A stretch of DNA of 64,000 nt from Patescibacteria group bacterium (GCA_038065955.1 JBBTPY010000003.1:39624-103623), one strand, 5' to 3'; positions 7,925 to 63,809 are shown, counted from the stretch's first letter. Notes: generated by a model not told the origin, from the letters alone. Numbers and translations are program-made.

Positions 7925-7925
7925 T

Positions 7926-32900: not shown

Positions 32901-32918
32901 ATCCTAAATCCTAAATTA
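32884..32918 (+). repeat. heptamer tandem repeat TAAATCC x4-5 spanning the HIT stop codon
   Basis: taaatcc x4 then taaatta. Confidence 0.9.
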
Positions 32919-33134: not shown

Positions 33135-33328
33135 AAAATGTCTTTATAGACCTCTTACACAATAACCTTTTCTACTACAATTATGCTTTTTCGGCTACAA
33201 ACAACTCATCGCTCGTCAATGAATACTTTGTATTCATTTCCTCGCGCTTCGTTGTTTTCGCTCGCCCTCACACCAAAAATTTTGGCGTGAGGGCTCAAAA
33301 AATCATAATTTCGCTACGAAAAATTATT

Positions 33329-44324: not shown

Positions 44325-44334
44325 TACGGGTAAA

Positions 44335-44877: not shown

Positions 44878-44911
44878 TTTTATAATATACAATTTCACGT
44901 AATCAAGGGTT

Positions 44912-46192
44912 ATGAAAATGAAAATCGGGATATTTTTAATTTTTGCCGCTGTTTGCGGTTTTGCCGCGTTTTTATTTTTAGGCGGCGCGTTTTTTTCTCG
45001 GGTTGAACCGGTTGAAGCGGCGGAAGAAATGAAAACGCTTTCTTTTTTTGTCGGTCAGCAAACCAGCGCCGCTTCATCAGTCAGCTGGCCTTTCACTTTT
45101 TACGTCGGCGACGATATTTCCACTTCCACCAAAAGCGCGTTTTTTGAAATCAGCGGCATCAGTCCGTCAACGGCGAATTTAATTGCCACAACCACTTTAA
45201 GCGGCGGCAGCGGCAGTTGTTCCCTAAACAGAACTTTAGACAATAACGGCCGTTTAAATAAATTTAAAATTGTTTATGATGCCACGAATTGTATTGACGT
45301 TTCGGCAAAAGGCGAATATTCCAGAACTTTAAACGTTGTTTTTAACAATCCGGTTGACGCTCTTTCGGCGAAATTCGCCATTACTTACCGTTTTACCGCG
45401 CCGACCAGCAACGGTTCAACCGCCATAAAAACAATTTCTTATTCCGCCAATGAGGGAACCGCCAGTTCTTCCGTCCCGGCCGGCCAAAATATTGTTTTAA
45501 ATTTCAGCCCTTACATCGGCGATGAAATTTCCACTTCCACTAAAAGCGCGTTTTTTGAAATCAGCGGCGTCAGTTTGGCCGCCGGCGCTTCGGCGATTGA
45601 TTTATCTTTAGGCGGCGGCAGCGGCAGTTGTTCCGTAAATCGGACGCTGGATACGACCGGATTTATCAATAAATTTCACATTTTGTACAACGTCAACGAT
45701 TGTATTAATATTTTTTCAAAAGGGGAATACAGCCGTTCTTTGACGATTAACGCCAGCGGCGCGGCGGTTTACATTTATTCGGCGAAATTGGTTTTAACTT
45801 ATCAATTCACGCCGCCTTCGGCCGGCGGCTACTGGGCAACCGGCACTTTTTATTCGCCGATTTTTGACACGGGCGCCATCAACGGCGCGTCTTATAATTG
45901 GATTATGTGGAAAGGGACGCTTAACGGCGGGAACGGGAAAATAAGATTACAACTGGCGACTTCCAATTCTTCCGGAGGGCCGTGGACTTATATCGGAGAA
46001 ACGCCGGGTTGTGATTCTTCGGTTTATTTTGAACCGCTTACGGACATTTCCAAGGAAATAAAATGTTTTTCAAGCCATAATAATAAAAGATATTTCCGTT
46101 ATAAATTGATTATTTGCTCTTCCAGCGATTGTTCAGCGGCTGGAACTAATACGCCGCAAGTGAACGACATGATTGTGAATTGGAGCCCATAA
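44912..46192 (+). CDS. secreted protein with two tandem ~145-aa domain repeats (paralogous to the C-terminal module of the 1271-aa protein)
   Basis: signal peptide; repeats DDISTSTKSAFFEISG...ITYRFTAP and DEISTSTKSAFFEISG...LTYQFTPP. Confidence 0.6.
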   Translation: MKMKIGIFLIFAAVCGFAAFLFLGGAFFSRVEPVEAAEEMKTLSFFVGQQTSAASSVSWPFTFYVGDDISTSTKSAFFEISGISPSTANLIATTTLSGGSGSCSLNRTLDNNGRLNKFKIVYDATNCIDVSAKGEYSRTLNVVFNNPVDALSAKFAITYRFTAPTSNGSTAIKTISYSANEGTASSSVPAGQNIVLNFSPYIGDEISTSTKSAFFEISGVSLAAGASAIDLSLGGGSGSCSVNRTLDTTGFINKFHILYNVNDCINIFSKGEYSRSLTINASGAAVYIYSAKLVLTYQFTPPSAGGYWATGTFYSPIFDTGAINGASYNWIMWKGTLNGGNGKIRLQLATSNSSGGPWTYIGETPGCDSSVYFEPLTDISKEIKCFSSHNNKRYFRYKLIICSSSDCSAAGTNTPQVNDMIVNWSP

Positions 46193-46198
46193 ACGACA

Positions 46199-46258
46199 AC
46201 TGACATATGACATTTGACAATTGACAGATTGATAACAAATGACAACTGACATATGAAC
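46199..46258 (+). repeat. heptamer tract NNNTGAC x~8 (ATCTGAC-family orientation)
   Basis: aactgac atatgac atttgac aattgac agattga ... tgacaac tgacata. Confidence 0.8.
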
Positions 46259-46468
46259 AATTTTAATAAAATATTTAGATTTCGGGAATTTCAAGTTTAT
46301 AAAGATTCAAGGAAATTCAGCAATGAATTAAAGAATTTTTCCAAAAAAAAATTTCCAAGTGAAGAGAGGTTTTGTCTTTTATCTCAATTTTGGCGAGCGC
46401 TTGATTCTATAATTTTAAATATCGCCGAAGGAACCGACATTATTATCCCGTCAATTAACGGCTTTTAG
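46253..46468 (+). pseudogene. four-helix-bundle (23S rRNA IVS-type) protein gene, 3'-truncated
   Basis: FREFQVYKDSRKF...KKFPSEERFCLLSQFWRALDSIILNIAEG matches the 4HB family consensus but stops after NIAEG (about 70 of the expected about 120 aa). Confidence 0.5.
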
Positions 46469-46482
46469 AAAAAAATTATTAA

Positions 46483-47040
46483 ATGAACAAAATAAATAAA
46501 AGTAAAAGGTCAGATGTCAGATGTCAGATGTCAGATGTCAATTGTCAGATGTCTGGCTTTTCCCTGTTGGAACTCATTATCTACATCGCCATTTTTGGGA
46601 CTGTGGTTTTGGCGACGACGAGCGTTTTGGTGACGGTTTTTGAAGGACGCGATTCAACGAATTCGCGCTATGAAGTTTTACAAAATATCCGTTTCTCTTC
46701 GGAAAAAATCAGGCAATTGGTTTATGACGCTTCGTCTTTTGCTGTTTCCGGCGCCTGTCCGTTTAATATTTTGGAAACGACAATCGGTTCGGCGACAACG
46801 AGCGTGGCCATTAATAGCGGTATTTTAACGCTTACTTCCGGCGGAAGCAGTACGCCGCTTATCGCCGAAAGCGTAACCGCCACCAGCACTTCCGGCAATT
46901 GTTTGTTCGCGAAAATTTCCAATCCCGCTCCAGCCAAATCCACGCTTCAAATGCGGTTCACAATCAGTTATAATGATAACGGAAACCAGCAATTGAAATT
47001 TTCCGATGAAATCAAAACGACAATCAGCCAGAGACAATGA
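46483..47040 (+). CDS. type IV pilin-like protein (prepilin) with an unusually long repeat-encoded leader
   Basis: class III signal G|FSLLELIIYIAIFG; the 25-aa leader MNKINKSKRSDVRCQMSDVNCQMSG is encoded by (GTCAGAT)n. Confidence 0.75.
   Translation: MNKINKSKRSDVRCQMSDVNCQMSGFSLLELIIYIAIFGTVVLATTSVLVTVFEGRDSTNSRYEVLQNIRFSSEKIRQLVYDASSFAVSGACPFNILETTIGSATTSVAINSGILTLTSGGSSTPLIAESVTATSTSGNCLFAKISNPAPAKSTLQMRFTISYNDNGNQQLKFSDEIKTTISQRQ
46509..46557 (+). repeat. heptamer tandem repeat GTCAGAT x7 (4 perfect units, then 3 degenerate) inside the pilin leader coding sequence
   Basis: gtcagat x4, gtcaatt, gtcagat, gtctggc. Confidence 0.95.
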
Positions 47041-47043
47041 AAC

Positions 47044-47115
47044 AACTGACAACTGACATCTGACCGCTTAAATGTCATATGTCATATGTTAAATCACATG
47101 TTAAATGTCAAATAT
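47044..47115 (+). repeat. heptamer tracts that switch orientation (AACTGAC/ATCTGAC then ATGTCAT/GTCAAAT) across the start of ORF 47086
   Basis: aactgac aactgac atctgac cgcttaa atgtcat atgtcat atgttaa atcacat gttaaat gtcaaat. Confidence 0.85.
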
Positions 47116-47499
47116 CAAAAGGGCGTAATCGCTTTGCCTTCAATAATAATGATTTCATTTTTGGTTTTAATCGCCGGCATCGGCATCGCTTCCAGCGGAT
47201 TTTTTGAAAATATGATGAGTTACGGCGACGTTAATTCCAAAAAAGCCCTTGTTTACGCCGAAGCCGGCGCCGAAGACGCGTTTGAACGGCTGGTAAAAAA
47301 CAAAAATTGCTCCTGCTCTTCTTATTCTTTAAGTTTCAGCGACGGTTCCGCCGCGATTGCGGTTTCCGGCGGAGCGAGCAGTAAAACCGTCGTTTCCGAA
47401 GGGACGGTAAACGGCAAAAAAAGAAAGGTTCAGGTGACGGTTTCTTTTGATGCCAATGATGAAGCGACGCAAACCGGCTGGCAGGAGATTGTTGATTAA
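47086..47499 (+). CDS. hypothetical membrane protein in the pilus locus (possible minor pilin/assembly factor)
   Basis: 137-aa ORF with an N-terminal hydrophobic segment; the start lies inside a heptamer tract. Confidence 0.4.
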   Translation: MLNHMLNVKYQKGVIALPSIIMISFLVLIAGIGIASSGFFENMMSYGDVNSKKALVYAEAGAEDAFERLVKNKNCSCSSYSLSFSDGSAAIAVSGGASSKTVVSEGTVNGKKRKVQVTVSFDANDEATQTGWQEIVD

Positions 47500-47505
47500 A
47501 TTAAT

Positions 47506-49011
47506 ATGTTAAATACTTTTAAAAAATTGTTAAACCGTTTTAAGAATATTGATTTAAGCGGCTTATTGCATCACGAGGAAAAAATTGGCGGCTTGGCAAT
47601 TGACGAAAACGGCGTTTTTTTAACTTATCTTGTCAAAAATAAAGACGGGAAAGAAGAGGAAATATTTAAAAAAGAAATTTCTTTGCCTATCGGAACGATT
47701 GAAAATGGGATTTTGAAAAATCCGGAAGCGTTTTTGGCCGGGCTTAAGGAACTGCAAAAAAATAAACCGCCTTCAAAATCAATTATCGTTTCTTTGCCTT
47801 CGGCGAGCGTCCAGCCGTTTATTTTTGAATTTTTTCCTAATTTAAAACAAGAAGAAATCAATAACGCCGTTTCTTTGATAATTAATTCTTCTTTGCCTTT
47901 GCCGCCGGAAAAAATTTACGCCGATTGGGAAGAAATTAAAGACGAAAACCTTCAAAAGAAAAAAGTTTTATTGGGAATGGGGTTAAAAGAATTGATTGTT
48001 CCGTATTTGGAAGTCATTAAAAAAGCCGATTTCGCGCCGGTGGCTTTAGAAACCCACGGTTGGAGTTTGGGACGGCTGCTTGATAAAAATGAACAATCAA
48101 TGGCGCTTAATTTTGAATCCGGCGGCGCGGTTTTCAGCGTTTTTTCCGGCGGTTCGCCGGTTTTTCAATTTTATTTGCCGGATGCGGATAAAAATTTTCT
48201 GGAAAAAGCCGCCGTTTTCGCCGAGCGGATTATGTATTTTTTGGCTTCCGACAATGAATACGGCTTTAAAATTAAAAATTTTCTGCTTTTAGGAGCCAAT
48301 GAAATACAAAATGAATTTAAAAACATATTTCAAAAACGTTTGTCGTTGAAATTCAATAAAGAAGAAATGGCGTTTAGCGGCGGCGAATCGCCGAAAGCGC
48401 GAATTTTTTCCGCCGGCGCCGCCAAAAGGGGACTTTTGCCCAGATACCAGGACGCCATTTGCAGTTTAATGCCTATCGGCACGGAATCGGCTTACGAACG
48501 CCAGCGTTTTGTTTCGTTTCTTGATTTTTTTCAAAAATTCGCCATTGCTTTCGGAGGATTTTTTATTATTTTGTTTTTAGGAACTTTCCTTTTAATCAAT
48601 GTTGTTTCCCGCAATGCCGCCAAATCTTTAATTGAAGAACAGACGATTGTTTTGCCGGAATTGGCGGTCATTAAAGAAACCGCCGCGCTTTTTAACGAAA
48701 AAATGGAACAATTTTCGGCGATTGCCGCCAAATCTCCAAAATGGGAAAATTTATTCAACGAAATTGATAAACTGAACAATCCCGGGATGATAATCGGCAA
48801 TTTATCCGTTGCCGTCGCTCAACCGGTAACAATCAGCGGCGCGGCGCGGGACAGAGACAGCCTGCTTCAATTAAAATCAACTTTGGAAAATTCACCGGTT
48901 TTTACCGCGCCGCCTTTGCCGCTTTCCGCTTTAATCGACAAGGAAAATATCGCCTTTTCGTTTAATTTGGGGTTAAAAGACGGTGGATTATTGATATATA
49001 ATAGAGATTAG
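47506..49011 (+). CDS. pilM: type IV pilus assembly protein PilM fused to a PilN-like membrane segment
   Basis: N-terminal actin-like PilM region (GLAIDENGVFLTYL...); a TM (FAIAFGGFFIILFLGTFLLI) about 340 aa in, then a periplasmic domain. Confidence 0.65.
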   Translation: MLNTFKKLLNRFKNIDLSGLLHHEEKIGGLAIDENGVFLTYLVKNKDGKEEEIFKKEISLPIGTIENGILKNPEAFLAGLKELQKNKPPSKSIIVSLPSASVQPFIFEFFPNLKQEEINNAVSLIINSSLPLPPEKIYADWEEIKDENLQKKKVLLGMGLKELIVPYLEVIKKADFAPVALETHGWSLGRLLDKNEQSMALNFESGGAVFSVFSGGSPVFQFYLPDADKNFLEKAAVFAERIMYFLASDNEYGFKIKNFLLLGANEIQNEFKNIFQKRLSLKFNKEEMAFSGGESPKARIFSAGAAKRGLLPRYQDAICSLMPIGTESAYERQRFVSFLDFFQKFAIAFGGFFIILFLGTFLLINVVSRNAAKSLIEEQTIVLPELAVIKETAALFNEKMEQFSAIAAKSPKWENLFNEIDKLNNPGMIIGNLSVAVAQPVTISGAARDRDSLLQLKSTLENSPVFTAPPLPLSALIDKENIAFSFNLGLKDGGLLIYNRD

Positions 49012-49023
49012 AGTTTAAAATTT

Positions 49024-49563
49024 ATGGACGACAAGATTATTTTTAGAAAAAAAATTATCAAATCGCTGATTATTACGGCGGCGATTTTAGCGTTGGAAGT
49101 CGGTATTTTAATTTTTGTTATAGACGTTATTTCCAAAAAAACGGCGGAAATAAAAGAAAGAAAAATACTGGCGATTTCTTTTGAGCGGGAAGCGGCCGAT
49201 TTTGAAGATTTGAAAAAAGATTATGAAAAAATCAAGCCGTATCTGGGAACGATTGACAGCGCCATACCCAATGAAGAAAATTTATTCAGAATACTTGAAG
49301 CGATTGAAAACGTCGGATTAAAATCGGGTATTCGGATTTCTTTGAGATTGGAAAGCCAGTCAGCCTTGCCGAGCGAAATCAGCGGCGTCAATTACGTGCC
49401 TTTTTCCGCTTCTTTTGAGGCCAATTATGATATTTTGCGGAATTATTTAAAAGCGCTTAATGATTCGCCGATTTTTGTAAGTGTTGATTCCGTCAGTATC
49501 GGCGGCGGTTCAATTTTCAATAACAGCGCGATTAGATTAAGCGGTAAAATTTACACAAAATAA
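49024..49563 (+). CDS. PilO-like pilus assembly protein (putative)
   Basis: 179 aa; N-terminal TM then a coiled-coil/periplasmic domain; sits after pilMN. Confidence 0.45.
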   Translation: MDDKIIFRKKIIKSLIITAAILALEVGILIFVIDVISKKTAEIKERKILAISFEREAADFEDLKKDYEKIKPYLGTIDSAIPNEENLFRILEAIENVGLKSGIRISLRLESQSALPSEISGVNYVPFSASFEANYDILRNYLKALNDSPIFVSVDSVSIGGGSIFNNSAIRLSGKIYTK

Positions 49564-50156
49564 TGATGGAGAAAATTTTGAAATATTTTAAATCAAAACC
49601 GGCGCAAAGTTTTTTTTACGCGGCCATTTTGATTATTTTTTCCGTTACGGCCGTTATTTTATTCGTTTGGTCGTTAATTTTTATTGTTAGACTGATTAAT
49701 TCAATTGTTATTACCGAAGATGAAGAATTACCGGTTTTGGCGTTTAATTTTACAGACTCCATCGTTTTATCGCGAAAATTGGGCATTATTTTTCCGGCGG
49801 AAATTTTAAATTCAACGGAAATTTTGAAAGAAACGGTTTCTTCAACTTCTTCGGCGGAAATCGTTCCGACGCTTTCTGAAATTTCCGTTCAAGTTTTGAA
49901 TGGCACCGACACAAAAGGATTGGCGAAATCCTGGGGAGAAAAATTTAAAGCAGCCGGTTTTTTGAAAATAGAAACCGGAAACGCCGACAAAAAAAATGAA
50001 CAGGGAATACAAATCGGCTATAAGCCGTCAAAAAAAGAAGCGCTGGATTCGGTTAAAAACGTTTTAATTTCCAATAATATTGAAGCGTCTTCAATAGCGG
50101 AAAAAGAGAGCGCGGAAAGTGAAAATTTTGACTTTACGATTATAATCGGAAAATAA
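49563..50156 (+). CDS. membrane protein with C-terminal LytR_C-like domain
   Basis: N-terminal TM; C-terminal VQVLNGTDTKGLA...GNADKK motif typical of LytR_C. Confidence 0.45.
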   Translation: MMEKILKYFKSKPAQSFFYAAILIIFSVTAVILFVWSLIFIVRLINSIVITEDEELPVLAFNFTDSIVLSRKLGIIFPAEILNSTEILKETVSSTSSAEIVPTLSEISVQVLNGTDTKGLAKSWGEKFKAAGFLKIETGNADKKNEQGIQIGYKPSKKEALDSVKNVLISNNIEASSIAEKESAESENFDFTIIIGK

Positions 50157-50165
50157 TCCGCGTGA

Positions 50166-51872
50166 TTACTCCGAGGAGACGCGTAAAATTTCTTCAATGG
50201 ACGTGAAGCCGGCGGAGATTTTTTCCAGTCCGTCTTCAAAGAGCGTTTTCATTCCTTCTTCGCGCGCTTTCTTGCGAATAACGTGGGCGGGCGAGTTTTT
50301 AAGAATTAAGTCTTTAACGGCGTCGTTGATGAAAATAATTTCAAATATTCCGATTTGCCCCCGATAGCCGCTGAAGCCGCAGACGGAACATCCCTTGGAG
50401 GCGTAAATAATTTTTGGCAGATTTTCTATTTTTAAATTAAGAGTTTTGGCTTGTTTGTTCAGCAATTTTTTGTTTTGTTCGTCTATTTCTTTGGAAGAAA
50501 TGCAAACCGCGCAGAGCCGACGAACCAATCGCTGGGCAATGGCGATATTAAGGGTGGACGCCAACAGAAACGGCTGGATGCCGAGTTCAATCAGGCGCGG
50601 CACGGTCGTCGGCGCGTCGTTGGTGTGTAGGGTGGACAAAAGCAAATGGCCGGTCATAGCGGCGTTAATGGCAATATCGGCGGTTTCCTCGTCTCTGATT
50701 TCGCCGATCATAATAATGTCCGGATTTTGGCGCATCAGGGACCGAAGGCCGGTGGCGAAAGTAATGCCGCCTTTAACATTGACCTGGGTCTGGTTTACCC
50801 GCGGAATATCGTATTCTATCGGGTCTTCAATGGTCGTAATATTCACTTTTGGCGTGTTTAAGATTTCTAAAATCGCGTAAAGAGTGGTGGTTTTGCCGGA
50901 GCCGGTCGGGCCGGTGACTAAAACCAAGCCGTGCGGTTTTTTGACGGCTTCGTTCAGTTTTTCCAGATTTTGGCGGGAAAATCCGAGCTCGGTTAAAGAC
51001 AGCGGCCGGAGAGAGCCTTTTAACAGCCGCATTTCGGCTTTTTCGCCGTGAAAAGTCGGGATTACCGAAACCCGGATATCAATAAATTGGTCTTCCAGTG
51101 GAAAACGAAAACGGCCGTCCTGAGGAGCGTTATGAATGTCTATTTGAAGATTGGAAACGACTTTGATTCTGGCAATTAAAATAGGGGAGATTTCTTTCGG
51201 CAAAGAAAGAATTTCCTGAAGAATTCCGTCCAGGCGGTAGCGGACCAAAAGTTTGTCCCTGAACGGTTCAAAATGAATATCCGAAGCGCCCAATGAGGCG
51301 GCGTGTTCAATGACGCTGTCTAAAATCCTGATAATAGGCACGGCTTCAACGATTTTGGAAATGTTGCCGGTTTCTTTAAGGCCGACGGTCGCTTTGATAT
51401 TTTCTTCAATAATTTTGTTAAAATCTTCGCCGATTTTTCTTTTATACGATTTTAAAGCGTATTTCAGACTTGCCGAGGTGGCCAGATAAACGTTCAGCCA
51501 AGCGTTTAATTTTAAACGAAGATAATTTATGGTTTCAAAATCGTTCGGGTCAGCCATCGCCAAAGAGCCGATTTTTTTCTCGGCGTCAAATTCAAAAAGA
51601 ATGACGCCGCGGCTTTTGGCGTATGATTCCGGAATAAGTTCAATAATGTCGGAATTGAGATTCAGCCGTTCCAATTTAACGCTCGGAACTTCCAAAAAAT
51701 CGGCAAGGGAATCCGTAAGGTTTTGTTCGGAAATGGCGCCGCGGCCTATTAAGACTTCGGTAATCGGCCGGTTGGAGCGCAGAGATTCGTTTTCGGCGGC
51801 AATTAATTCTTCTTCCGCCACAACGCCGGAATCAATAATGATTTTTTTAATATCGTCTTTGGCGAGATGCAT
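50166..51872 (-). CDS. pilB: type IV pilus assembly ATPase PilB (GspE family)
   Basis: Walker A GPTGSGKTTT; Asp and His boxes; N-terminal GSPII domains; ORF extends to a TTG at 51923, but the ATG at 51872 (MHLAKDD) is the likely start. Confidence 0.9.
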   Translation of the reverse strand: MHLAKDDIKKIIIDSGVVAEEELIAAENESLRSNRPITEVLIGRGAISEQNLTDSLADFLEVPSVKLERLNLNSDIIELIPESYAKSRGVILFEFDAEKKIGSLAMADPNDFETINYLRLKLNAWLNVYLATSASLKYALKSYKRKIGEDFNKIIEENIKATVGLKETGNISKIVEAVPIIRILDSVIEHAASLGASDIHFEPFRDKLLVRYRLDGILQEILSLPKEISPILIARIKVVSNLQIDIHNAPQDGRFRFPLEDQFIDIRVSVIPTFHGEKAEMRLLKGSLRPLSLTELGFSRQNLEKLNEAVKKPHGLVLVTGPTGSGKTTTLYAILEILNTPKVNITTIEDPIEYDIPRVNQTQVNVKGGITFATGLRSLMRQNPDIIMIGEIRDEETADIAINAAMTGHLLLSTLHTNDAPTTVPRLIELGIQPFLLASTLNIAIAQRLVRRLCAVCISSKEIDEQNKKLLNKQAKTLNLKIENLPKIIYASKGCSVCGFSGYRGQIGIFEIIFINDAVKDLILKNSPAHVIRKKAREEGMKTLFEDGLEKISAGFTSIEEILRVSSE

Positions 51873-51921
51873 GTTGATAACAAATAACTTATTTATATAA
51901 TAACATAACCGGATTAAAAAC

Positions 51922-51955
51922 AAAAACTCCGGTTATCTTATAATCCGGAGTTTTT
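51922..51955 (-). terminator. bidirectional rho-independent terminator/attenuator between the major pilin gene and pilB
   Basis: aaaaactccgg-ttatcttataat-ccggagttttt. Confidence 0.75.
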
Positions 51956-51974
51956 GTTGATGTTTTATTTGATT

Positions 51975-52679
51975 TTAATGTTGATTAGCAGATGCTTGTC
52001 CGCCACCCATAATTGTCAATTTTGTGCCAACTTCATATAAAGAGCTGTTATTGCCGCCGTCTTTCGTCATTTTAGCTCCAATAGAAGAACTTTCCAGTCT
52101 GGCATTAATTTCAAAAGTAAGATCGCTGGAATAACAAGTATAGCGATAAAAAAGATCAGTATATCGAACATCGGAAACTGAGCCATCAACAAAAGAGTTT
52201 GTCGGGTCAAGCGGCATATCGGAAATCGGCGAACCGCCGACTAAACTTGAAAGGTTAACCGGAATCCAACCTGTGCCGTCAACCAAACTTGAACTGGCTA
52301 CCGTTCTTTGGGTTGAAGTTGGGTATGATGTTGCGCTATCAAGTGTTGCATCTGTAATCGCTGCGCCCGGGCTGTCTGATGGATAACTATAATTAATTCC
52401 ATCGCCGCTTGCCCATGATGCGGAATCTTTACAAGTCGTATTGCTTCCGCTATTACCTAAATATATTGTGCTTGTAGTTTTAGTGATATAAAGCGCGATG
52501 GCGGTTTTCATGGTCGCTAAATCCGAAACTCTTTGGGCGTCCCGCGTTTCTCTTAATGTTTCGGCCGGGTTAAGGACGAAAATAGCCACTGCGGCTAAAA
52601 TAGCCATAATGGCGATAACGATTAAAAGCTCAAGTAATGTGAAACCTTTTTTGGGCGATATTGAATTATTGTTAGTCAT
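51975..52679 (-). CDS. type IV pilin (likely major pilin)
   Basis: canonical prepilin signal KKG|FTLLELLIVIAIMAILA; 234 aa; followed by an attenuator hairpin. Confidence 0.85.
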   Translation of the reverse strand: MTNNNSISPKKGFTLLELLIVIAIMAILAAVAIFVLNPAETLRETRDAQRVSDLATMKTAIALYITKTTSTIYLGNSGSNTTCKDSASWASGDGINYSYPSDSPGAAITDATLDSATSYPTSTQRTVASSSLVDGTGWIPVNLSSLVGGSPISDMPLDPTNSFVDGSVSDVRYTDLFYRYTCYSSDLTFEINARLESSSIGAKMTKDGGNNSSLYEVGTKLTIMGGGQASANQH

Positions 52680-52740
52680 ATATTTATTTTACAAGAAATT
52701 GAACAAAATACAAAATTAAATCTGTGGATAACTTTAGTGG

Positions 52741-53115
52741 TTATTTTATATATTTCAGCGCTTTGGCGATGACGTCGTCAATTCTGGTGTCGGCTTTTAT
52801 TAAATAATCTTTTACGCCAAGATTTTTAGCTCTTTCCATATCCGCTTCCTGGCTTAAATTGGAAAGAATAATCACTGGAACGTTTTGCCATTTTTTATTT
52901 TTTCTCATTGTTTCCAGTATTTCAAATCCCGAGACGAAAGGGAGCATTAAATCCAAAAGCGCGACTGCCGGCGGTTCGTTATTTTCCCCGATAAATTTAA
53001 CCGCTTCATTGCCGTCGCTTACGGATTTTATTTCAACGCCGGCTTTGGCGAATTTCATCTGGTAAGCTTTTTGCGCCAAAAGGTCGTCTTCAATTATTAA
53101 GACATAATTTTTCAT
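52741..53115 (-). CDS. single-domain response regulator (CheY-like receiver)
   Basis: 124 aa; Asp pocket (DD...D...K). Confidence 0.85.
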   Translation of the reverse strand: MKNYVLIIEDDLLAQKAYQMKFAKAGVEIKSVSDGNEAVKFIGENNEPPAVALLDLMLPFVSGFEILETMRKNKKWQNVPVIILSNLSQEADMERAKNLGVKDYLIKADTRIDDVIAKALKYIK

Positions 53116-53525
53116 ATATGCTTCGTCACGCGGCTAATGATTTCATCAAGTTTATATTCGCTTTTGACGAGGTAATCGGTTATGCCTAATTTTTCCGCTT
53201 TTTCTTTTATTTCTTCTCCGCCGGAAACGGAAACAATGACGACTTTTTTATCCTTAAATCGCGAATCGTTTCTTAATATCTTTAAAAAATCCAAACCATG
53301 CATTTTAGGCAAGCGCAAATCAAGCCAAATCAAATCAATATCGTTCTTTTTCATAATTTCCAACGCTTCCTCGGCCGATGGAACGGCGGAAACGTTAAAA
53401 TCAAGCTTCGCCAATTTCAATTTAACGGCTTCGGCCAAAGGTTTTTCGTCTTCAACCACTAAAATAGTTTTTGTCATAATGGTATAGTGAAATAAAATGC
53501 CGTTCCTTTTTTTTCTTTGCCCCAA
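53112..53525 (-). CDS. single-domain response regulator (receiver)
   Basis: 137 aa; receiver motifs; translationally coupled to neighbours. Confidence 0.8.
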   Translation of the reverse strand: MGQRKKRNGILFHYTIMTKTILVVEDEKPLAEAVKLKLAKLDFNVSAVPSAEEALEIMKKNDIDLIWLDLRLPKMHGLDFLKILRNDSRFKDKKVVIVSVSGGEEIKEKAEKLGITDYLVKSEYKLDEIISRVTKHI

Positions 53526-55084
53526 TCGGCCGGCGATTCAAACCAAATTTTTCCTTTCCATAATTCTACCAGATTTTTAACCAGATACAAACCGAGGCCG
53601 TTTCCGTCCGGCGCTTTCAAGACCGCGTTTTCGGCCCGGAAAAATCTTTCAAAAAGACGGGCTTGCTCTTCCGGCGGAACGCCGATGCCGTTATCTTTGA
53701 CGGAATAAAGTATTTCATTTTCCCGGCGCCCGATTTTAATTTCTATTTTTCCTTTTTCGTCAGAATAACGGATGGAATTCGTTAGCAGATTGGAAATTAC
53801 CTGATTAATCATCAGAGAATCAAGCGTGATTTCCGGCAATTGATTTTCCGCGACGATTTCAATTTTAATATTTTTCGGTTTAATCAGCGGTTCCAAATCT
53901 TTTATTATTCCTTCAGTAAAATTATGAAGATTGATTTTCAATGGATTGAGTTTGAGAAGGCCGCTTTCAATCCGGGCGAGCGCCAAAAGCATATTCAAAG
54001 TGCCGGCAAGCCGCAAAACGGCGCTGTAAATTTCATTAAGAAAACTCTTTTGGTTTTTATTGAGTTTGCCGACGTCTTCCGATTCAAGCATTTCCGTGTA
54101 CCATCTGATGGTCGTTAAAGGAGTGCGCAATTGATGGGAAGCGATTGAAATAAAATTAGTTTTAGATTCGTCAAGTTTTTTCTCATTAGTAATATCGCGG
54201 AAAATAATAATGGCGCCGATTGTTTCATTTCCCCTTTTAAGGGGAGTGTCAACAAGAGTAATGGGAAATTTTTTGCCGGAAGGAAGCGAATAATAAAAAT
54301 CGTCTTCTATTCCTATTTTTATGGTTTGACCGGTTTTTAACATTTTTGCCGCTGGCAAGTCATCACCGGATATTTCTTGTTTCCCTTTATAAAGTGATAA
54401 AATTTCTTTTCTGTTTTTGCCGAGCGCTTTTTCCGCCGAGATTTCAAGCATTTGAGCGGCCGCGTCGTTGATTAAAACAACGCGCAGATTGTTATCAAGG
54501 ACAAAAAGCCCCTCGCCCATTGAAGAAATAATCGTGTTTAATTTATCGCGTTCATTTTTTAAAACATCCCGATTTTTCTCAATGTCTTCAAGAATATTAT
54601 AAAGGGCGATTTTTATGTTTTCCAAATTTTTGACTTTTTGGACGATTTCTTCGGTTTTTTCTTTCACTTTTCGCTCCAATCCGCCGTAAGATTCTTTTAA
54701 TTTCGCCGACATTTCATCAAATGATTTTGCCAATTGGTCAATTTCGTTTTCCGGCTGAATTTCCGTTTTGTCGCGGACTTTATAATTCAGATTTCCATCG
54801 GCTATTATTTCCGCGCCTTGATGAAGTTTTTTCAGAGGATTAATAATAGTCCTTTTTAAACTGAAATAAATCGCGGTTATTAAAATTAAAATTAAAACAA
54901 TAAGAATCGCGGTAAGGAAAATTACGTTTTGTTCAATTATTTTAGCCGTTAAATCGGCTGAGATTTCCGATTTCGTTAGAACGCCTTTGAAAAATTTAAT
55001 AAAAACGGCGCCTCCGACAAAAAGCGCGAAAGCGACCGTAGCCGCGATATCAAATATAATTTTTACGATGATTGACCTTTTCAT
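53474..55084 (-). CDS. sensor histidine kinase (TM-HAMP-PAS-HisKA-HATPase)
   Basis: H box SHQLRTPLTTI; N and G boxes (DNGIGV, GNGLGL); HAMP after TM2. Confidence 0.85.
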   Translation of the reverse strand: MKRSIIVKIIFDIAATVAFALFVGGAVFIKFFKGVLTKSEISADLTAKIIEQNVIFLTAILIVLILILITAIYFSLKRTIINPLKKLHQGAEIIADGNLNYKVRDKTEIQPENEIDQLAKSFDEMSAKLKESYGGLERKVKEKTEEIVQKVKNLENIKIALYNILEDIEKNRDVLKNERDKLNTIISSMGEGLFVLDNNLRVVLINDAAAQMLEISAEKALGKNRKEILSLYKGKQEISGDDLPAAKMLKTGQTIKIGIEDDFYYSLPSGKKFPITLVDTPLKRGNETIGAIIIFRDITNEKKLDESKTNFISIASHQLRTPLTTIRWYTEMLESEDVGKLNKNQKSFLNEIYSAVLRLAGTLNMLLALARIESGLLKLNPLKINLHNFTEGIIKDLEPLIKPKNIKIEIVAENQLPEITLDSLMINQVISNLLTNSIRYSDEKGKIEIKIGRRENEILYSVKDNGIGVPPEEQARLFERFFRAENAVLKAPDGNGLGLYLVKNLVELWKGKIWFESPADWGKEKKGTAFYFTIPL

Positions 55085-56077
55085 TTACGCGATTATCAGC
55101 CAATAACCCAATATAAAAACGGCTATCGCTCCCAGCCAAATGAGAAGACCAAGAATCAGCGGTCTGAATAAATCTTTTAATAATCCCTTTATGTCTATGG
55201 TCAAGCCGATGCTTGCCATCGCCAATGTCCAGAGAATCGCGGAATAAGGTTTAAGCGTTTTGGCGTACGCCGTCAATTCCGGAACAAAAGAAAATAAAAT
55301 TCCCGTTATAACAAAGCCCGCCAACGCCCAGTAAATCAGAAACGGCGATTGATTTTCTTCAGATTGTTGTTGCTCTTTCCGAAAAATAAAAACTAAAACA
55401 GCGAGAATCGGGATTATCAAAGCGGTTCTCGCCAGTTTTATTGACAAGGCGAACGCTTCAATATTTTTGCCTAAAAATAAAACCGCGGTTTTGACGGTGC
55501 CGGTGGTGTGCAGAGTGGTAGCGGCGAACAAAGCGTAAATGTCTTCCGGCATCGCTAAAAATTTCTGGACAAAAGGATAAAGAAACGCGCCGATTATTCC
55601 CCAAAAAACTACGACTAAAATCGCTTTGCTTACGTCTTTTTTTTCGGCTTTTATCGCCGGACCGGCCATCATTACCGCTGAAGCGCCGCAAATGGCCGTG
55701 CCGATTGCCGTTAAAACGCCGGTTTTTTCGCTTACTTTAAGCCATCGTCCGAGAAAATCCGCCAGCCAAAAAATAATCACAATGCCAACCAGCATTTGAA
55801 GCCACGCCATCGGCATTACTTTTGAAAGTTTCTGAAATTCCAGGTTTACGCCGTACAGAACGATGCCAACGGGAATAATCAAACGCGGAGTAAGTCCCAA
55901 GCCCGGCGAAAACAAAGGTCTGGCGCCGATTATTAATCTGACCAAGAGCCCAAGTAAAATTCCGTTGACCAGCGGGTCAAACAAAATATGAAATTGGGAT
56001 AAATAATAAGCGGCCGAGCCGATAATGACGCTAAAAATTAAACCGGGTAAGAACCGCAAAATTTTATTATTCATCAT
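55085..56077 (-). CDS. YeiH/UPF0324-family membrane protein (putative sulfate exporter family)
   Basis: 330 aa, about 10 TM; motifs FLPGLIF, IGTAICGASAV and KAEKKDV parallel E. coli YeiH. Confidence 0.6.
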   Translation of the reverse strand: MMNNKILRFLPGLIFSVIIGSAAYYLSQFHILFDPLVNGILLGLLVRLIIGARPLFSPGLGLTPRLIIPVGIVLYGVNLEFQKLSKVMPMAWLQMLVGIVIIFWLADFLGRWLKVSEKTGVLTAIGTAICGASAVMMAGPAIKAEKKDVSKAILVVVFWGIIGAFLYPFVQKFLAMPEDIYALFAATTLHTTGTVKTAVLFLGKNIEAFALSIKLARTALIIPILAVLVFIFRKEQQQSEENQSPFLIYWALAGFVITGILFSFVPELTAYAKTLKPYSAILWTLAMASIGLTIDIKGLLKDLFRPLILGLLIWLGAIAVFILGYWLIIA

Positions 56078-57369
56078 AAATTTTTCTTTAATTCTTCAAG
56101 TTCTTTTTTTAATTCTATCATTTTTAATTCTCTGCCAATAGTGAGATTTTTGAATTTTTCAAGCTCCGCCAGTTTTTCTTCTATTTTCACGTCTTTTTCT
56201 TTTAATTCTTTCTGGTTTTTTTCAATATTATTAAGCATTTCGTTGAAAATTTCGCCGAGAGAACCGATTTCGTCTTTGGATTTTATGTTTGTTCGGGCGC
56301 TGAAATTATTTTCGGAAATTTTTTTCGCGATTTCGGCGATTGACGTCAGGCCTTTTAAAAGCCAATTACTCAATAAGGCGATGCCGGCAATAGTTAAAAT
56401 TAAAATAAAAATTCCGCCAAAAATAATCCGCTCTTGAATTTTTTTAAGCAGAGACAAAATTTCCGCCGATTGAGCTTCCACTATTAAAACAATCTCGTCT
56501 TTTTCAATACACATTGACGCTCCTAAAACCTTTTTGCCGTCATAATTCAAATATTCGCCGGCCATTTCCAGATTATTTTCAAAACAGGCGCTAACCGGCT
56601 CAGTGTCAACTTTATGTTTTAAAATATTGTATTCAATAAAGCGGGATTGGGTAATCATCAGCCGGTCTTTGTTTACCAGATAAATTTCCGCGGTTTGATA
56701 TTCGTCAAAAAAGGCGGCGCCGGTAAGCGCTCCTTTTTCTTTTTGCCATTTGCCGCTTAAGAGAGCGCTTAATCTGTCGGTGTTTACGAAATGGAGCAGC
56801 ATTACGGCGTCAAGGGGAACGAATTTTTTGTCCGCGGATTCTTTGGTTGAAAAAATTCTGGCGGAAATGTGAATCATTGGTTCGGAGCTTTCATATTCTT
56901 CGTAAACTACCGGAGCCACGAGCGCTTCTCCGAATCCGGCGGCAATGGCTTCATGAAATCTTATGTTTTCGTCGCTTTCGTCTTCGCCGATTCTGTCGGC
57001 CAAAGAAGAAGATATGACAATTCCGTCTTTATTTAGTATGTCAATAATAACCACTTCCGGGTCGTAAATAATCTTTTTTTCTTTCAGATAAAAATTCAGA
57101 TTTTTAACGGATTCTTTTTTGCCCGATAAAATCTCTTCAACGGCGTTTCGGATATAACCGTCCGAAGACCAGTCAATGGTTCTTGTTTTTAGCGATTCAA
57201 TAAAAGAAAAATAAGAGCCTTCGCTGGTTTCCGCCAAAAGTTGAAAATTATCAATCGTTCGAGCTTTGAAATAATTTTTTAAGTAAGCGTTTAAATAAAA
57301 AGTCAGGCCGGCAATCATTAAAACAATAACGCCGGAAAAAAATAAAATAAATTTTATTCGGAGATTCAT
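56074..57369 (-). CDS. HAMP-domain membrane sensor protein (no kinase domain)
   Basis: N-terminal TM, periplasmic Cache-like region, second TM, HAMP (EIGSLGEIFNEM), coiled coil. Confidence 0.55.
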   Translation of the reverse strand: MNLRIKFILFFSGVIVLMIAGLTFYLNAYLKNYFKARTIDNFQLLAETSEGSYFSFIESLKTRTIDWSSDGYIRNAVEEILSGKKESVKNLNFYLKEKKIIYDPEVVIIDILNKDGIVISSSLADRIGEDESDENIRFHEAIAAGFGEALVAPVVYEEYESSEPMIHISARIFSTKESADKKFVPLDAVMLLHFVNTDRLSALLSGKWQKEKGALTGAAFFDEYQTAEIYLVNKDRLMITQSRFIEYNILKHKVDTEPVSACFENNLEMAGEYLNYDGKKVLGASMCIEKDEIVLIVEAQSAEILSLLKKIQERIIFGGIFILILTIAGIALLSNWLLKGLTSIAEIAKKISENNFSARTNIKSKDEIGSLGEIFNEMLNNIEKNQKELKEKDVKIEEKLAELEKFKNLTIGRELKMIELKKELEELKKNL

Positions 57370-57427
57370 AATTTAAGCGTCAAATATCGGCTGTTTATTT
57401 TTTATAATATTATTATATAATAATATT

Positions 57428-58657
57428 ATGCCGCTGTATAGTTATAAAGCCGTTGATAAAAATGGTTCGCCGACATCGGGAGAAATTTTGGCGGACAGCC
57501 GCGAAGAAGCGGTGGAAAATCTTTCGCGCGACGGATTATTGCCGATTATCGTTGAAGAAAAATCCGTCGGCAAGCTTTCGCAGTTTTCCGATTTGGCGCA
57601 ATTTTTTCCGTTTTTTCAGAAAATCGGCGCCATTGACAAAATTCTCTTAACCCGTTATTTGGCCGCGATTTTGAAAGCCGGCATCGGGTTGGCGGAAGCT
57701 TTGGAAATTATTTTAAACGACGCGAAAAAACCTTTGATTAGAAAAATTCTTCTGGAAATTAAAGCCGGCGTGGAAAGAGGGGAACCGCTTTCATCAATGT
57801 TCGCCGATTATCCGCGATATTTTTCCCCGATTTTTGTCGGGATGATAAAAGCCGGCGAACTTTCGGGCAGTTTGGAAAGCGCTCTGGAAAATCTTTCCGG
57901 CCAATTAATAAGGGATTACGACTTGTTAAAAAGGGTGAGAATGGCGATGATTTATCCGCTGATTCTTTTAATCGGTTCCGCCGGCATTATCGTGCTGATG
58001 ATGACTTTTGTTTTGCCGCGGATGGCGAAAGCTTTCAAAGGCATGCTCGCCGAATTGCCCCTGATTACGAGATTTTTTATCGCTTTAAGCGATTATTTAA
58101 GCAGAAGCCCGATTTTAACGATTTCCGTTTTTTTTATTTTAATCGCCGCGGGCTTTTATTTTTCCCGTTCGGTTTTCGGCAAAAAAATCATTTTCCGCGT
58201 TTTTGAAAAATTGCCGGTCGCTTCGGAACTTGTCAAGAAATTGGCACTGGCGCGTTTCAGCCGAACTTTCAAAAATCTTTTGGGAAGCGGCGTTTCGGCT
58301 ATTGAAGCGATTGAAATGAGCGCTTTAACGGTCGGCAATCCGACTTATCAGAAGTCGTTTTTGAATATTATGGAAGAATTAAAAAAGGGGTCAAATTTTT
58401 CCGCGGTTTTCAAATCGCGTCCCGCTCTTTACCCGAGTTTTTTTGCCAATATCATCGCCATCGGCGAACGAACCGGCACTTTGGAAAAATCGCTGGAAAC
58501 TTTAAGCGCGTTTTACGAAGAAGAAGTGGACGGACTTTTGAAAAATCTGGTTTCGCTTTTGGAACCGCTGCTGATTTTTGCAATGGGTATAATTGTGGCA
58601 ATGGTGGCTTTGTCCGTGCTTTTGCCGATATTCCGAATGGTCAGAATGTTTCAGTGA
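57428..58657 (+). CDS. pilC: type IV pilus/T2SS platform protein PilC (GspF family)
   Basis: 409 aa; duplicated GspF domains; 3 TM. Confidence 0.85.
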   Translation: MPLYSYKAVDKNGSPTSGEILADSREEAVENLSRDGLLPIIVEEKSVGKLSQFSDLAQFFPFFQKIGAIDKILLTRYLAAILKAGIGLAEALEIILNDAKKPLIRKILLEIKAGVERGEPLSSMFADYPRYFSPIFVGMIKAGELSGSLESALENLSGQLIRDYDLLKRVRMAMIYPLILLIGSAGIIVLMMTFVLPRMAKAFKGMLAELPLITRFFIALSDYLSRSPILTISVFFILIAAGFYFSRSVFGKKIIFRVFEKLPVASELVKKLALARFSRTFKNLLGSGVSAIEAIEMSALTVGNPTYQKSFLNIMEELKKGSNFSAVFKSRPALYPSFFANIIAIGERTGTLEKSLETLSAFYEEEVDGLLKNLVSLLEPLLIFAMGIIVAMVALSVLLPIFRMVRMFQ

Positions 58658-58666
58658 GGGTAAATT

Positions 58667-58695
58667 GACATCTAACATCTGACAACTGACATATT
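58667..58695 (+). repeat. heptamer tract AATTGAC ATCTAAC ATCTGAC AACTGAC upstream of a pilin gene
   Basis: direct reading; reverse-complement family of GTCAGAT. Confidence 0.85.
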
Positions 58696-58715
58696 AATAA
58701 TTTTAATAAAATATA

Positions 58716-59237
58716 ATGAATCAGATAAATAAATGTCAAAAGTCAGATGTCAGATGTCGTGTCAGCTGTCAGTTGTCTGGCTTCTCTCTTTTAGAATTGA
58801 TTTTGGTAATCGGAATTCTGGTTATTATCAGCGGTGTTGTTTCGCCATTTTTATTCGGCGGCAAAACTTCAATTGAAGTGGAGGAAGAAGCGAAAAAAAT
58901 AGCCGGCGTTTTGCGGCTGGCGCAAAATAAGGCGATGAGCCGCGAAGATGGATTAAGCTGGGGAGTTCATTTTGACAACATTACTTCAACGGAGCCGTTT
59001 TATGATTTTTTTCAGGGGAACAGCTATACGGCCGGCACTTCTACGGAACGATATTATTTATCCGGCGTCGTTGTTTTTCAAACGCCGGCAAGCGGCACTT
59101 CAACCGACATAATTTTTATTAAGCGCAGCGGCAGTTTGGCAAACGGAACGACTACGACTATTGCCGTAAAATCGCTTTCGCCGGAAATTATTAAAAATGT
59201 CATTATTTATCCAAACGGCAGGGTTAACGCGCAGTAA
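58716..59237 (+). CDS. type IV pilin-like protein with long repeat-encoded leader
   Basis: G|FSLLELILVIGILVI; 22-aa leader MNQINKCQKSDVRCRVSCQLSG; paralogous to 46483. Confidence 0.75.
   Translation: MNQINKCQKSDVRCRVSCQLSGFSLLELILVIGILVIISGVVSPFLFGGKTSIEVEEEAKKIAGVLRLAQNKAMSREDGLSWGVHFDNITSTEPFYDFFQGNSYTAGTSTERYYLSGVVVFQTPASGTSTDIIFIKRSGSLANGTTTTIAVKSLSPEIIKNVIIYPNGRVNAQ
58742..58781 (+). repeat. degenerate GTCAGAT heptamer repeat inside the pilin leader coding sequence
   Basis: gtcagat gtcagat gtcgt gtcagct gtcagtt gtctggc. Confidence 0.9.
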
Positions 59238-59239: not shown

Positions 59240-59917
59240 ATGAAAAATAAAGGCCAAATTTTGTCGGAACTTTTAATCGCCATTGCCGTCGGCGTGGTTT
59301 TAGCCGTTGTCGGGGCCCAGCTTATAATCGTCAGTTTGACTTCAACTAAAACTTCCAAAGAAAAAAGCGAGGCAATCGGTTTGGCGCAGGAAGGAATGGA
59401 GGCGACAAGGGCTATTATCCGCGGCAATGACGCGACATCGCAGGGTTGGAACAGAATTTATTTGCCGCCGGACGGAACGGGCAACGCTTCAACTTCAAAA
59501 GGAACCAACAGCCCTTGGCATCCGGAAATTATCGGCAATGTCTGGCAATTGGTTTCAAGCACCGAAACCATAGTTTTGGCGGGAGAGACATACACGAGAA
59601 AAATTATCATTGAAAATGTCTGCCGCAACGATACCGACGGAACGATAAGCGGCATTTCTCCTTGTACCGGAGGAAATTCGGACGACCCGACCACTCAAAA
59701 AATCACCGTCAGCGTTTCCAAAACGGACGCGCCGGACGTAAACTTAATCGCTTATATGAGCCGTTATATAAATGAATCAATGCTCCAAACCGGCTGGAAC
59801 GGGGGATTAAACGACGGGCCGTTTTCCGCCACTTCCACGACTAACACCAATTACGGCGCCAATACCGAAACAACTAAACTCGATTTAATAACAGAAATTA
59901 AATTAAAAACGCAGTAA
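59240..59917 (+). CDS. pseudopilin/minor pilin (prepilin-type N-terminal domain)
   Basis: MKNKGQILSELLIAIAVGVVLAV is a prepilin-like N-terminus; 225 aa. Confidence 0.7.
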   Translation: MKNKGQILSELLIAIAVGVVLAVVGAQLIIVSLTSTKTSKEKSEAIGLAQEGMEATRAIIRGNDATSQGWNRIYLPPDGTGNASTSKGTNSPWHPEIIGNVWQLVSSTETIVLAGETYTRKIIIENVCRNDTDGTISGISPCTGGNSDDPTTQKITVSVSKTDAPDVNLIAYMSRYINESMLQTGWNGGLNDGPFSATSTTNTNYGANTETTKLDLITEIKLKTQ

Positions 59918-63797: not shown

Positions 63798-63809
63798 GCG
63801 ACACTAAAA

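Follow-up and report, generated by a model that had tools for sequence, protein, structure and literature searches.

Heptamer arrays at three pilin-type genes of a Patescibacteria type IV pilus locus are probably the arms of decaying cassettes of the rRNA intervening-sequence type

The DNA analysed here (the window) is a stretch of 64,000 nt from a Patescibacteria group bacterium (GCA_038065955.1, JBBTPY010000003.1:39624-103623), with coordinates counted from its first letter. It carries a type IV pilus locus in which two pilin genes and one pilin-like open reading frame (ORF) are accompanied by tracts of 7-nt repeats, of the type (NNNTGAC)n upstream of each gene and of the type (GTCANNN)n at or around its start. 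We call these tracts the 5' and the 3' arms, and the three sites loci 1, 2 and 3 (Table 1). The six tracts had been located in a previous sequence-only reading of the window, and all of them were recovered at the same places by Tandem Repeats Finder and by a scan for a period of 7. They are clearly above chance: the motif GTCAGATGTCA, with up to two mismatches, matches the window 34 times compared with 4.5 ± 2.0 times in shuffled sequences, and none of 100 shuffles reaches 34. The arrangement is indeed present at the three pilus-locus genes but it is not specific to the pilus, since GTCANNN arrays are also found in unrelated genes of the window.

The two types of tract are reverse complements of each other and the 5'/3' pairs are 84-94% complementary. 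The 5' arm of locus 1 begins 2 nt past the stop codon of an upstream gene that encodes a 426-aa protein. The predicted RNA fold of this locus has a minimum free energy (MFE) of -89 kcal/mol (z = -4.3; 0/100 shuffles as good) and it contains a long-range stem joining 46195-46250 to 46509-46555. At locus 3, where the arms are 26 nt long, 85% complementary and separated by 40 nt, the MFE is -36.3 kcal/mol (z = -5.7; 0/200 shuffles as good). The arms of locus 2 are 5 nt apart, with no ORF between them, and the fold is weaker (MFE of -15.5 kcal/mol, z = -2.3, with 5 of 200 shuffles as good). The suggestion that the tracts form inverted repeats capable of long-range pairing is thus borne out beyond shuffled controls, most strongly at loci 1 and 3 and more weakly at locus 2.

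The first pair of arms encloses a 71-codon ORF (46253-46468) that the sequence-only reading had not mentioned. Its match to the Pfam family PF05635 lies above the curated cut-off but is truncated, covering positions 1-50 of the 106 of the profile. The nearest relatives of this ORF are four helix bundle proteins of 120-125 aa, to which it is 79-81% identical over the first ~57 residues. In an alignment with the intact orthologues L171 and L180 (the letter L designates related loci or contigs), the frame is kept to about codon 62 and then shifted by an internal deletion of 140 nt; the ORF is therefore a pseudogene, whose C-terminal fragment lies in another frame. The end of this pseudogene overlaps the start codon of pilin 1. 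The same is observed in the intact orthologous locus L171, in which a 429-aa gene, a 5' arm, a 128-aa four-helix-bundle gene and a pilin gene follow each other in this order, the ATG of the pilin overlapping the end of the cassette gene.

Metagenome contigs were scanned with an alignment of the full-length four-helix-bundle proteins, which gave 405 relatives, and 79 loci were kept. Arrays with a period of 7 are present on both flanks of the gene in all 79 of them; the commonest downstream 7-mers are GTCAAAT and GTCAATT and the upstream ones are their complements. The duplex energy between the two flanks is on average -54.9 kcal/mol, compared with -34.4 kcal/mol when one flank is shuffled (67-68 distinct loci). 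In addition, arms of the same locus pair better with each other than with arms of other loci (-42.8 versus -37.9 kcal/mol, p = 1e-4), and at 16 of 68 loci the own pair of arms is better than each of the 8 cross pairs. The same arms also surround cassette genes that have nothing to do with pilins; these lie between the genes for peptidase S24 and an IMS polymerase or precede DnaE, fmt, MreB and further genes. In L134 (1950-2420), a four-helix-bundle gene that is more distantly related is flanked by inverted tandem repeats of another unit (AGAACTAAAAAAC / GTTTCTCAGTTTCTT), so the arm-gene-arm plan holds with other repeat sequences.

This anatomy has a known counterpart. The intervening sequence (IVS) of the 23S rRNA of Coxiella burnetii consists of a PF05635 ORF between terminal inverted repeats, which form a stem of 28 bp at which RNase III cuts; GACAGAT heptamers, two or three depending on the strain, lie just upstream of the ORF, and the ORF is reported to be in reductive evolution (PMC4990558). 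PF05635 ORFs have also been reported within rRNA insertions of bacteria of the candidate phyla radiation, or Patescibacteria (PMC11270868). The earlier statement that no described system has such an arrangement was consequently wrong, since the Coxiella IVS is built in this way, with inverted heptamer arms on both sides of a PF05635 ORF (PMC4990558). Like the rRNA IVSs of C. burnetii and Leptospira, the window element has a PF05635 ORF inside terminal inverted repeats that form a long stem. It further shares with the Coxiella IVS heptamers with a GACAnnT core located 5' of the ORF in the same orientation (in the window these units run up to the ORF start), a repeat number that depends on the lineage, and an ORF that decays while its flanks persist. 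Unlike the rRNA IVSs, the window elements lie in a protein-coding type IV pilus operon and not in helix 45 or 25 of 23S rRNA: an Rfam scan at gathering scores detected no rRNA in the window, and the genes that flank all three sites are protein-coding. Unlike those of Coxiella, the arms are made wholly of tandem heptamers, and the one on the 3' side codes for a prepilin leader. Because the gene, the arms and the heptamers are shared but not the insertion into rRNA, we consider the window element as a variant of the rRNA IVS rather than a member of this class. We therefore propose, with good confidence, that the heptamer arrays are the arms of IVS-type PF05635 cassettes which are decaying in place at the three pilin-type genes.

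The three sites of the window show successive stages of decay. At locus 1 the arms and the gene with its deletion are present, at locus 3 the arms and about 20 nt of each end of the gene, and at locus 2 the arms only. The relationship between loci 1 and 3 is visible at the nucleotide level: 58676-58714 is identical to 46236-46274 at 35 of 39 positions, which correspond to the last units of the arm and the first 19 nt of the ORF. This relic of the 5' end directly abuts a stretch from the end of the ORF, its last ~17 nt, that overlaps the start of pilin 2; the 3' part of the relic region (58693-58715) aligns with locus 1. At the position that corresponds to locus 2 in L171, the next pilin-like ORF is fused to an N-terminal piece of another four-helix-bundle gene (TSYRDLIVWQKSKRLVENLY). 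The pilin-like gene that follows pilin 1 in L171 (2410-2928) starts with a four-helix-bundle N-terminal relic, MKTTSYRDLIVWQKSKRLVENLY, which is followed by repeats of the CTACTCG type and then by a hydrophobic segment.

Table 1. Features of the window (slashes in leaders mark the predicted prepilin cleavage site)
Feature	Position	Strand	Description
5' arm, cassette 1	46194-46252	+	NNNTGAC heptamers: GACAACT, GACATAT, GACATTT, GACAATT, GACAGAT and others
N-terminal part of four-helix-bundle pseudogene	46253-46468	+	PF05635 (23S rRNA intervening-sequence protein), Pfam E = 1.4e-10
C-terminal fragment of the same pseudogene, other frame	46419-46499	+	ends in LLSRQLTAFRKKLLNEQNK and stop; hmmsearch E = 6e-4
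Type IV pilin 1, 185 aa	46483-47040	+	leader MNKINKSKRSDVRCQMSDVNCQMSG/FSLLELIIY; Pfam N_methyl above cut-off
3' arm, cassette 1	46509-46557	+	seven GTCAGAT-type units, ending with the Gly(-1) codon
5' arm, ORF-less hairpin 2	47042-47064	+	ACAACTG ACAACTG ACATCTG AC; 1 nt past the pilin 1 stop
3' arm, hairpin 2	47070-47119	+	degenerate ATGTCAT/ATGTTAA/ATGTCAA units; holds candidate starts 47086 and 47098
Pilin-like ORF	47086-47499	+	leader MLNHMLNVKYQKG/VIALPSIIMISFLVLIAG; assignment inferred from N-terminus and synteny
PilC (T2SSF), gene upstream of cassette 3	57428-58657	+	Pfam E = 2.6e-52
5' arm, cassette remnant 3	58665-58692	+	TGACATC TAACATC TGACAAC TGACAT
5'-end relic of four-helix-bundle ORF, locus 3	58693-58715	+	ATTAATAATTTTAATAAAATAT, ATG mutated to ATT
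Type IV pilin 2, 173 aa	58716-59237	+	leader MNQINKCQKSDVRCRVSCQLSG/FSLLELILV; orthologues match N_methyl
3' arm, cassette remnant 3	58733-58781	+	GTCAAAA GTCAGAT GTCAGAT GTCGT GTCAGCT GTCAGTT GTCTGGC; ends with the Gly(-1) codon
Heptamers in seryl-tRNA synthetase gene (13687-14946)	14770-14801	+	GTCAAGT GTCAGAG GTCAAAT GTCAAAG, in frame = SSVRGQMSKV
AAATCAG and GTCAGAT-like heptamers in 116-aa ORF (17601-17951)	17804-17837	+	in frame (INQKSDIKSQMLK); ORF without Pfam match
Heptamers in glycosyl-hydrolase-like DUF4015 gene (62481-63797)	63012-63046	+	GTCAAGT/GTCAGGT (KCQVSGVKCQVS), in frame
10-mer array in DUF4015 gene	63227-63268	+	ACACAGATAA x4 (TQIDTDKTQINTD), in frame
CGACTTA-type heptamers in DUF4015 gene	63555-63603	+	LTTHNLRLTT, in frame
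Start of GxxExxY / PDDEXK_3 (PF13366) ORF	63807-63998	+	E = 1.9e-6; cut by the window end
Unrelated heptamer array	7892-7926		GTTAAAA
Unrelated heptamer array	8340-8377		AAGTAAT x5
Unrelated heptamer array	16414-16446		AGTTTGT x4.7
Unrelated heptamer array	32884-32916		TAAATCC x4.7
Intergenic element, ~190 nt	33148-33340	+	terminal inverted repeats TAGACCTCTTACACAATAA ... TTATTATGCAAGAGGTCTTA around two internal hairpins

At loci 1 and 3 the 3' arms are read as protein. Translation of the 3' arm of cassette 1 gives the residues SDVRCQMSDVNCQMSG of the leader of pilin 1, a protein named by NCBI 'prepilin-type N-terminal cleavage/methylation domain-containing protein', and the 3' arm of remnant 3 is translated in the same way as the leader of pilin 2. 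The two pilins are alike only over residues 1-30 (67% identity) and their mature parts are unrelated; therefore the common leader stems from the cassette, and the duplication of a pilin gene is ruled out as its source. The ORF at 47086 has an ambiguous start, for which other gene callers choose 47098 or 47134; it gives no Pfam hit and its sequence G/VIALP is without Glu5, hence we call it only pilin-like. Two other pilin-type genes of the pilus locus, at 51975-52679 (minus strand, MTNNNSISPKKG/FTLLEL) and at 59240-59917, have ordinary short leaders and no heptamers.

The same pattern recurs at homologous loci and at other pilin genes of Patescibacteria. Among 70 genes located directly downstream of related cassettes, 25 encode the prepilin N_methyl motif and 5 encode PilC/T2SSF. 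When a cassette is linked to a pilin, its 3' arm reaches to 0-3 codons from Gly(-1) and is open in the frame of the pilin, which gives leaders such as MSMVKCQWSNVKNG/FTLIEL, MSRRSESVKCQMSNVKCQSG/FTLLEL and MNRINKQNQMSDVRCQMSG/VSLLEL and, in Peregrinibacteria, MPKVKSQISTVNCQMSKVKCANG/FSLVEL. Pilin-linked and non-pilin cassettes are interspersed in a rough neighbour-joining tree. In the clade of the window, all seven members have the mature pilin in frame with an ATG (M-N/S-x-x-N-K) located across the end of the cassette gene, although their arrays differ in length, and this conserved upstream ATG is presumably the start codon in use. In the literature that we searched, we found no account of pilin genes with a PF05635 cassette at their start, nor of prepilin leaders encoded by heptamers.

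The junction between the PilC and pilin 2 genes was observed in four states. Orthologues of pilin 2 were searched with its mature part only, and most of them have ordinary short leaders (MKA/F, MKG/Y, MKRFKTG/Y, MLTKNG/F). In L217, whose pilin is 82% identical, the junction is empty, with the PilC stop, 7 nt and then ATG AAA GCA TTT TCT CTT, which gives the leader MKA/F. In L218 it is occupied by a 5' arm, a 12-nt spacer, an ATG and a 3' arm, with no ORF, and in the window by the arms and relics of both gene ends. Finally, in L216 (2430-2565 in GCA_017973895.1, JAEMOI010020926.1) the identity of the mature pilin exceeds 90%, but the leader, MKNKVIEKELSYKLVDSHRVKG/F, is a completely different one and lies between the inverted repeats CCGATGCGAAT / ATTCGCATCGG. 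This leader resembles the N-terminus of a GxxExxY/PDDEXK_3 cassette and, to judge from its sequence, looks like a remnant of such a cassette at the same junction, an assignment based on about 16 residues only. From these four states it follows that the heptamer leader is a derived, inserted state and not a conserved control device of pilin 2. Cassettes of the GxxExxY/PDDEXK_3 family (PF13366) are comparable to those studied here in that a small ORF has flanking inverted repeats, and the L216 remnant also supplies the pilin leader, but they have a different fold and a repeat unit of the CGAAT type. A PF13366 ORF that begins near the end of the window is preceded by CGAAT-containing repeats (ATGCGAATACACACGAATGACACAAAT) and represents a second family of small repeat-flanked cassettes.

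The arrays had initially been interpreted as a translational switch, in which the gain or loss of a 7-bp unit of the 3' array by slipped-strand mispairing would shift the frame and turn the pilins on or off. Indeed, the unit length cannot be divided by 3, the arrays separate the annotated ATG from the mature pilin, and the number of units differs among species-level orthologues; Coxiella strains also differ in unit number, 2 versus 3 (PMC4990558), and the HMW adhesins of Haemophilus influenzae are switched by heptanucleotide tracts (PMC8262952). However, at the level of the assembly consensus, the unit numbers of loci 1 and 3 are identical in the contigs L001-L008, L214 and L215 (695 kb); these ten contigs are independent assemblies from several samples, some of them with single-nucleotide polymorphisms inside the region, so the consensus is invariant over about ten assemblies that include sequence variants. 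The tracts are also short and imperfect, with no more than 4 perfect units in a row at locus 1 and no more than 2 at locus 3, and with 71-89% matches in Tandem Repeats Finder. When we simulated the gain or loss of 1 or 2 units, the upstream ATG was disconnected, yet an in-frame ATG (TTG in one case) always remained within the array, so that no clean OFF state was obtained. Read from the conserved ATG, the frame is 'ON' in all seven members of the clade. In addition, the same arrays flank genes that do not encode surface proteins and sit within housekeeping coding sequences, and orthologous pilins without any array exist. A 170-aa form of pilin 1, considered as a possible copy-number allele, proved to be the same DNA with a different call of the start codon. 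Given the invariant units, the imperfect tracts, the absence of an OFF state and the orthologues with plain leaders, phase variation of the pilins by slippage was not borne out, and we regard it as very improbable.

The comparison with H. influenzae hmw1A and hmw2A points in the same direction. In both cases a 7-bp unit is found at the 5' end of a gene for a surface adhesin or pilus, and RNA structure or RNase III may take part (PMC8262952, PMC12721329). The hmw tracts are long, perfect, polymorphic between and within strains, and located in the promoter or in the 5' untranslated region (UTR) (PMC8262952, PMC12721329), whereas those of the window are short, degenerate, organized in paired inverted arms, invariant among assemblies and buffered by an ATG in every frame. 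Of four properties of simple sequence repeat contingency loci that were tested, the window tracts have the unit length and placement but lack the other three (tract quality, polymorphism and OFF state).

The inverted repeats could also be recombination sites, at which a flip of the enclosed segment would turn a pilin on or off, and they do flank a short segment that holds the pilin start. Nevertheless, in all 25 of the 79 loci that have the pilin motif, it lies on the strand of the cassette gene and downstream of it, the three other possible configurations do not occur, and all the assemblies show a single orientation. No match to a recombinase family was found among the ORFs scanned around the arrays (40.5-62.4 kb). 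With an orientation that never flips, either among related loci or among assemblies, an inversion switch is hardly credible.

Another reading concerns the RNA. In a model in which the hairpin has been co-opted, the stem would be an RNase III site that separates the pilin transcript, or it would limit the access of ribosomes; such a role is compatible with decaying cassettes and would add to this explanation. Strong stems are predicted, with the pilin ATG in or near the loop, the arms have outlasted the ORF in L218 and at two sites of the window (loci 2 and 3), arms of the same locus are more complementary than arms of different loci, and 30 of the 70 genes downstream of a cassette encode pilins or PilC. 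Furthermore, the equivalent stem of the Coxiella IVS is cut by RNase III (PMC4990558), and in H. influenzae 5'-UTR structures targeted by RNase III act together with repeat tracts (PMC12721329). On the other hand, if RNase III cut within the 3' arm, the pilin message would lose the conserved upstream ATG; moreover, DnaE, fmt, MreB and other genes have the same stems upstream, and close orthologues of pilin 2 are without the hairpin. Rfam gave no match to the arm hairpins, with only sub-threshold hits to hairpin-like microRNAs. No RNase III signature motif is encoded in the window, to which this search was confined. A co-opted hairpin thus appears as a possible but rather doubtful addition to the cassette explanation.

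The position of the gene directly upstream of pilins, which is recurrent, could also suggest that the four-helix-bundle protein is a dedicated regulator that binds the heptamers, as RNA or DNA, and controls pilin expression. Its PF05635 relatives, such as Avd of the diversity-generating retroelements, are nucleic-acid-binding pentamers (PMC10053308). Yet locus 1 retains only a pseudogene and loci 2 and 3 have lost the gene while the pilin ORFs are still intact, the same cassette flanks unrelated genes, and the same junction can hold a different cassette or none, which makes this role most unlikely. As regards a diversity-generating retroelement, no match to a reverse transcriptase was found among the ORFs scanned around the arrays, where template and variable repeats were not specifically searched. 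We also rejected the idea that the arms act as promoters: the general unit ATTTGACA includes the -35 hexamer TTGACA, but locus 1 has 4 promoter-like sites compared with 3.5 expected, the excess at locus 3 is partly antisense, and in the relatives the arms abut the ATG of the cassette, with no room for a -10 box.

We come back to the cassette explanation and to how it could work. The unit is composed of a 5' arm (NNNTGAC)n, a four-helix-bundle gene (PF05635) for about 120 aa and a 3' arm (GTCANNN)n, and at the three pilin-type genes such cassettes occupy the interval from the stop of the upstream gene to the position of Gly(-1)/Phe(+1) cleavage. When the sense strand is read, a TGA is present in each of the three frames of the 5' arm, and the 3' arm has an ATG in all three frames and no stop; the presence of an ATG in each GTCAGAT unit had been recognized before, and the array without a stop in any frame was reproduced by simulation. 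A cassette inserted at the 5' end of a gene therefore leaves this gene translatable, the TGAs of the 5' arm probably ending upstream translation and the stop-free, ATG-rich 3' arm allowing translation of what follows. (A supposed rule that arrays share the strand of the ORF was trivial, because ATCTGAC has a TGA in every frame.) At the pilin genes, the 3' arm and the last codons of the cassette gene would have become the prepilin start codon and leader. The leader is presumably removed by prepilin peptidase, so this region would be tolerant of insertions. The cassettes may be selfish or near-neutral insertions, and recombination between generic arms is one possibility for their movement. By analogy with the rRNA IVSs, the stem of the arms might form in the operon mRNA and be processed by RNase III. 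More tentatively, the arms could be an evolved 'do-no-harm' adaptor which lets PF05635 and GxxExxY cassettes enter the 5' ends of genes harmlessly; in Patescibacteria they would prefer the leader position of pilin genes, to which they would donate start codon and leader, and stem processing of the RNase III type may in addition uncouple or tune the pilin mRNA.

Several observations weigh against decaying neutral cassettes as the whole explanation. The enrichment of pilins (25/70) is unlike what a randomly inserting neutral element would give, and would be compatible with a preference for certain sites or with a role in the expression of the pilins. At loci 2 and 3 and in L218, 5' arms that code for nothing are kept after the loss of the gene, which could reflect selection for the hairpin instead of slow decay. 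Orphan GTCAGAT x3 arrays lie beside housekeeping genes in many phyla, so the arrays are not always marks of a cassette. Lastly, we know of no mobility enzyme for PF05635 cassettes.

Exact GTCAGAT x3 arrays were found in at least 120 stretches of reference genomes, from Acidobacteriota, Bacteroidota, Planctomycetota, several classes of Patescibacteria, Synechococcus and Proteobacteria. Among the 120 matches listed, about 20 have a strict inverted partner nearby. The assumption of a cassette gene beside every array had to be abandoned: a narrow hidden Markov model detected one at 2 of the 120 listed loci and Pfam PF05635 in 1 of 138 neighbouring ORFs, the other neighbours being ordinary housekeeping genes. 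Since most of the listed arrays have no PF05635 neighbour, heptamer arrays are a widespread class of repeats of which the cassettes are one carrier.

Two other repeat systems are worth comparing. The short tandemly repeated repetitive (STRR) heptanucleotide sequences of heterocystous cyanobacteria are dispersed, mostly intergenic, present in many copies per genome and of unknown function. The GTCAGAT x3 arrays are similarly dispersed, in many phyla, but the unit sequences differ, and to our knowledge no link of STRR sequences to PF05635 cassettes or to inverted pairing has been reported. In the repetitive extragenic palindromic sequences (REP) and bacterial interspersed mosaic elements (BIME) with genes for REP-associated tyrosine transposases (RAYT), a small gene lies inside inverted copies of a repeat that also occurs as scattered ORF-less hairpins. 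The elements described here differ from these in that no catalytic activity is known for the four-helix-bundle protein and in that their repeats are heptamers in tandem, not single palindromes.

The window contains other short repeats (Table 1). Heptamers lie in frame in the seryl-tRNA synthetase gene; a clean insertion of 21 nt was considered there and rejected. The array is located in a variable loop with 3 more residues than in the Aquifex enzyme (PDB 2dq3). Three different in-frame arrays lie in the DUF4015 gene alone, and the window genome seems unusually tolerant of short tandem repeats in coding sequence. Four arrays of unrelated heptamers, perfect or near-perfect, are found at gene boundaries: around genes that we take, from their sequence, to be rplO and secY, within the N-terminal part of a membrane protein encoded on the minus strand, and where a HIT-like gene ends. 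The intergenic element at 33148-33340 is present in a single copy in the window and has an RNA MFE of -61.7 kcal/mol, compared with -27.9 ± 3.3 kcal/mol for shuffled sequences (z = -10.2); it matches no Rfam family at gathering score. The element may correspond to an insertion without an ORF or to a structured RNA that has not been described. Upstream of pilin 1 (40509-46192, plus strand), the 426-aa protein, which has no Pfam matches, is preceded by a protein of 1271 aa with fn3-like domains; both may be pilus-associated surface proteins. The L171 orthologue of the 426-aa protein contains a long internal duplication.

These observations have consequences for annotation. The long and odd leaders of many Patescibacteria pilins (e.g. 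SDVRCQMS or VKCQMSN) are to be read as cassette arms and not as a special signal, and genes for small four helix bundle proteins beside pilins as IVS-type passengers. The repeats of the window provide no evidence for a new mechanism of phase variation. What is new is the placement of the cassettes: a type of element studied only in rRNA genes is also found in protein-coding operons, where its arms are read as protein. A single junction seen empty, filled, decayed and replaced offers a rare natural series on the spread and decay of cassettes that carry no enzyme. If the adaptor reading were true, an intervening sequence in the style of rRNA would operate in mRNAs, and if the stem is processed in the mRNA, this would affect the expression of the type IV pili with which these episymbiotic bacteria contact their hosts and take up DNA.

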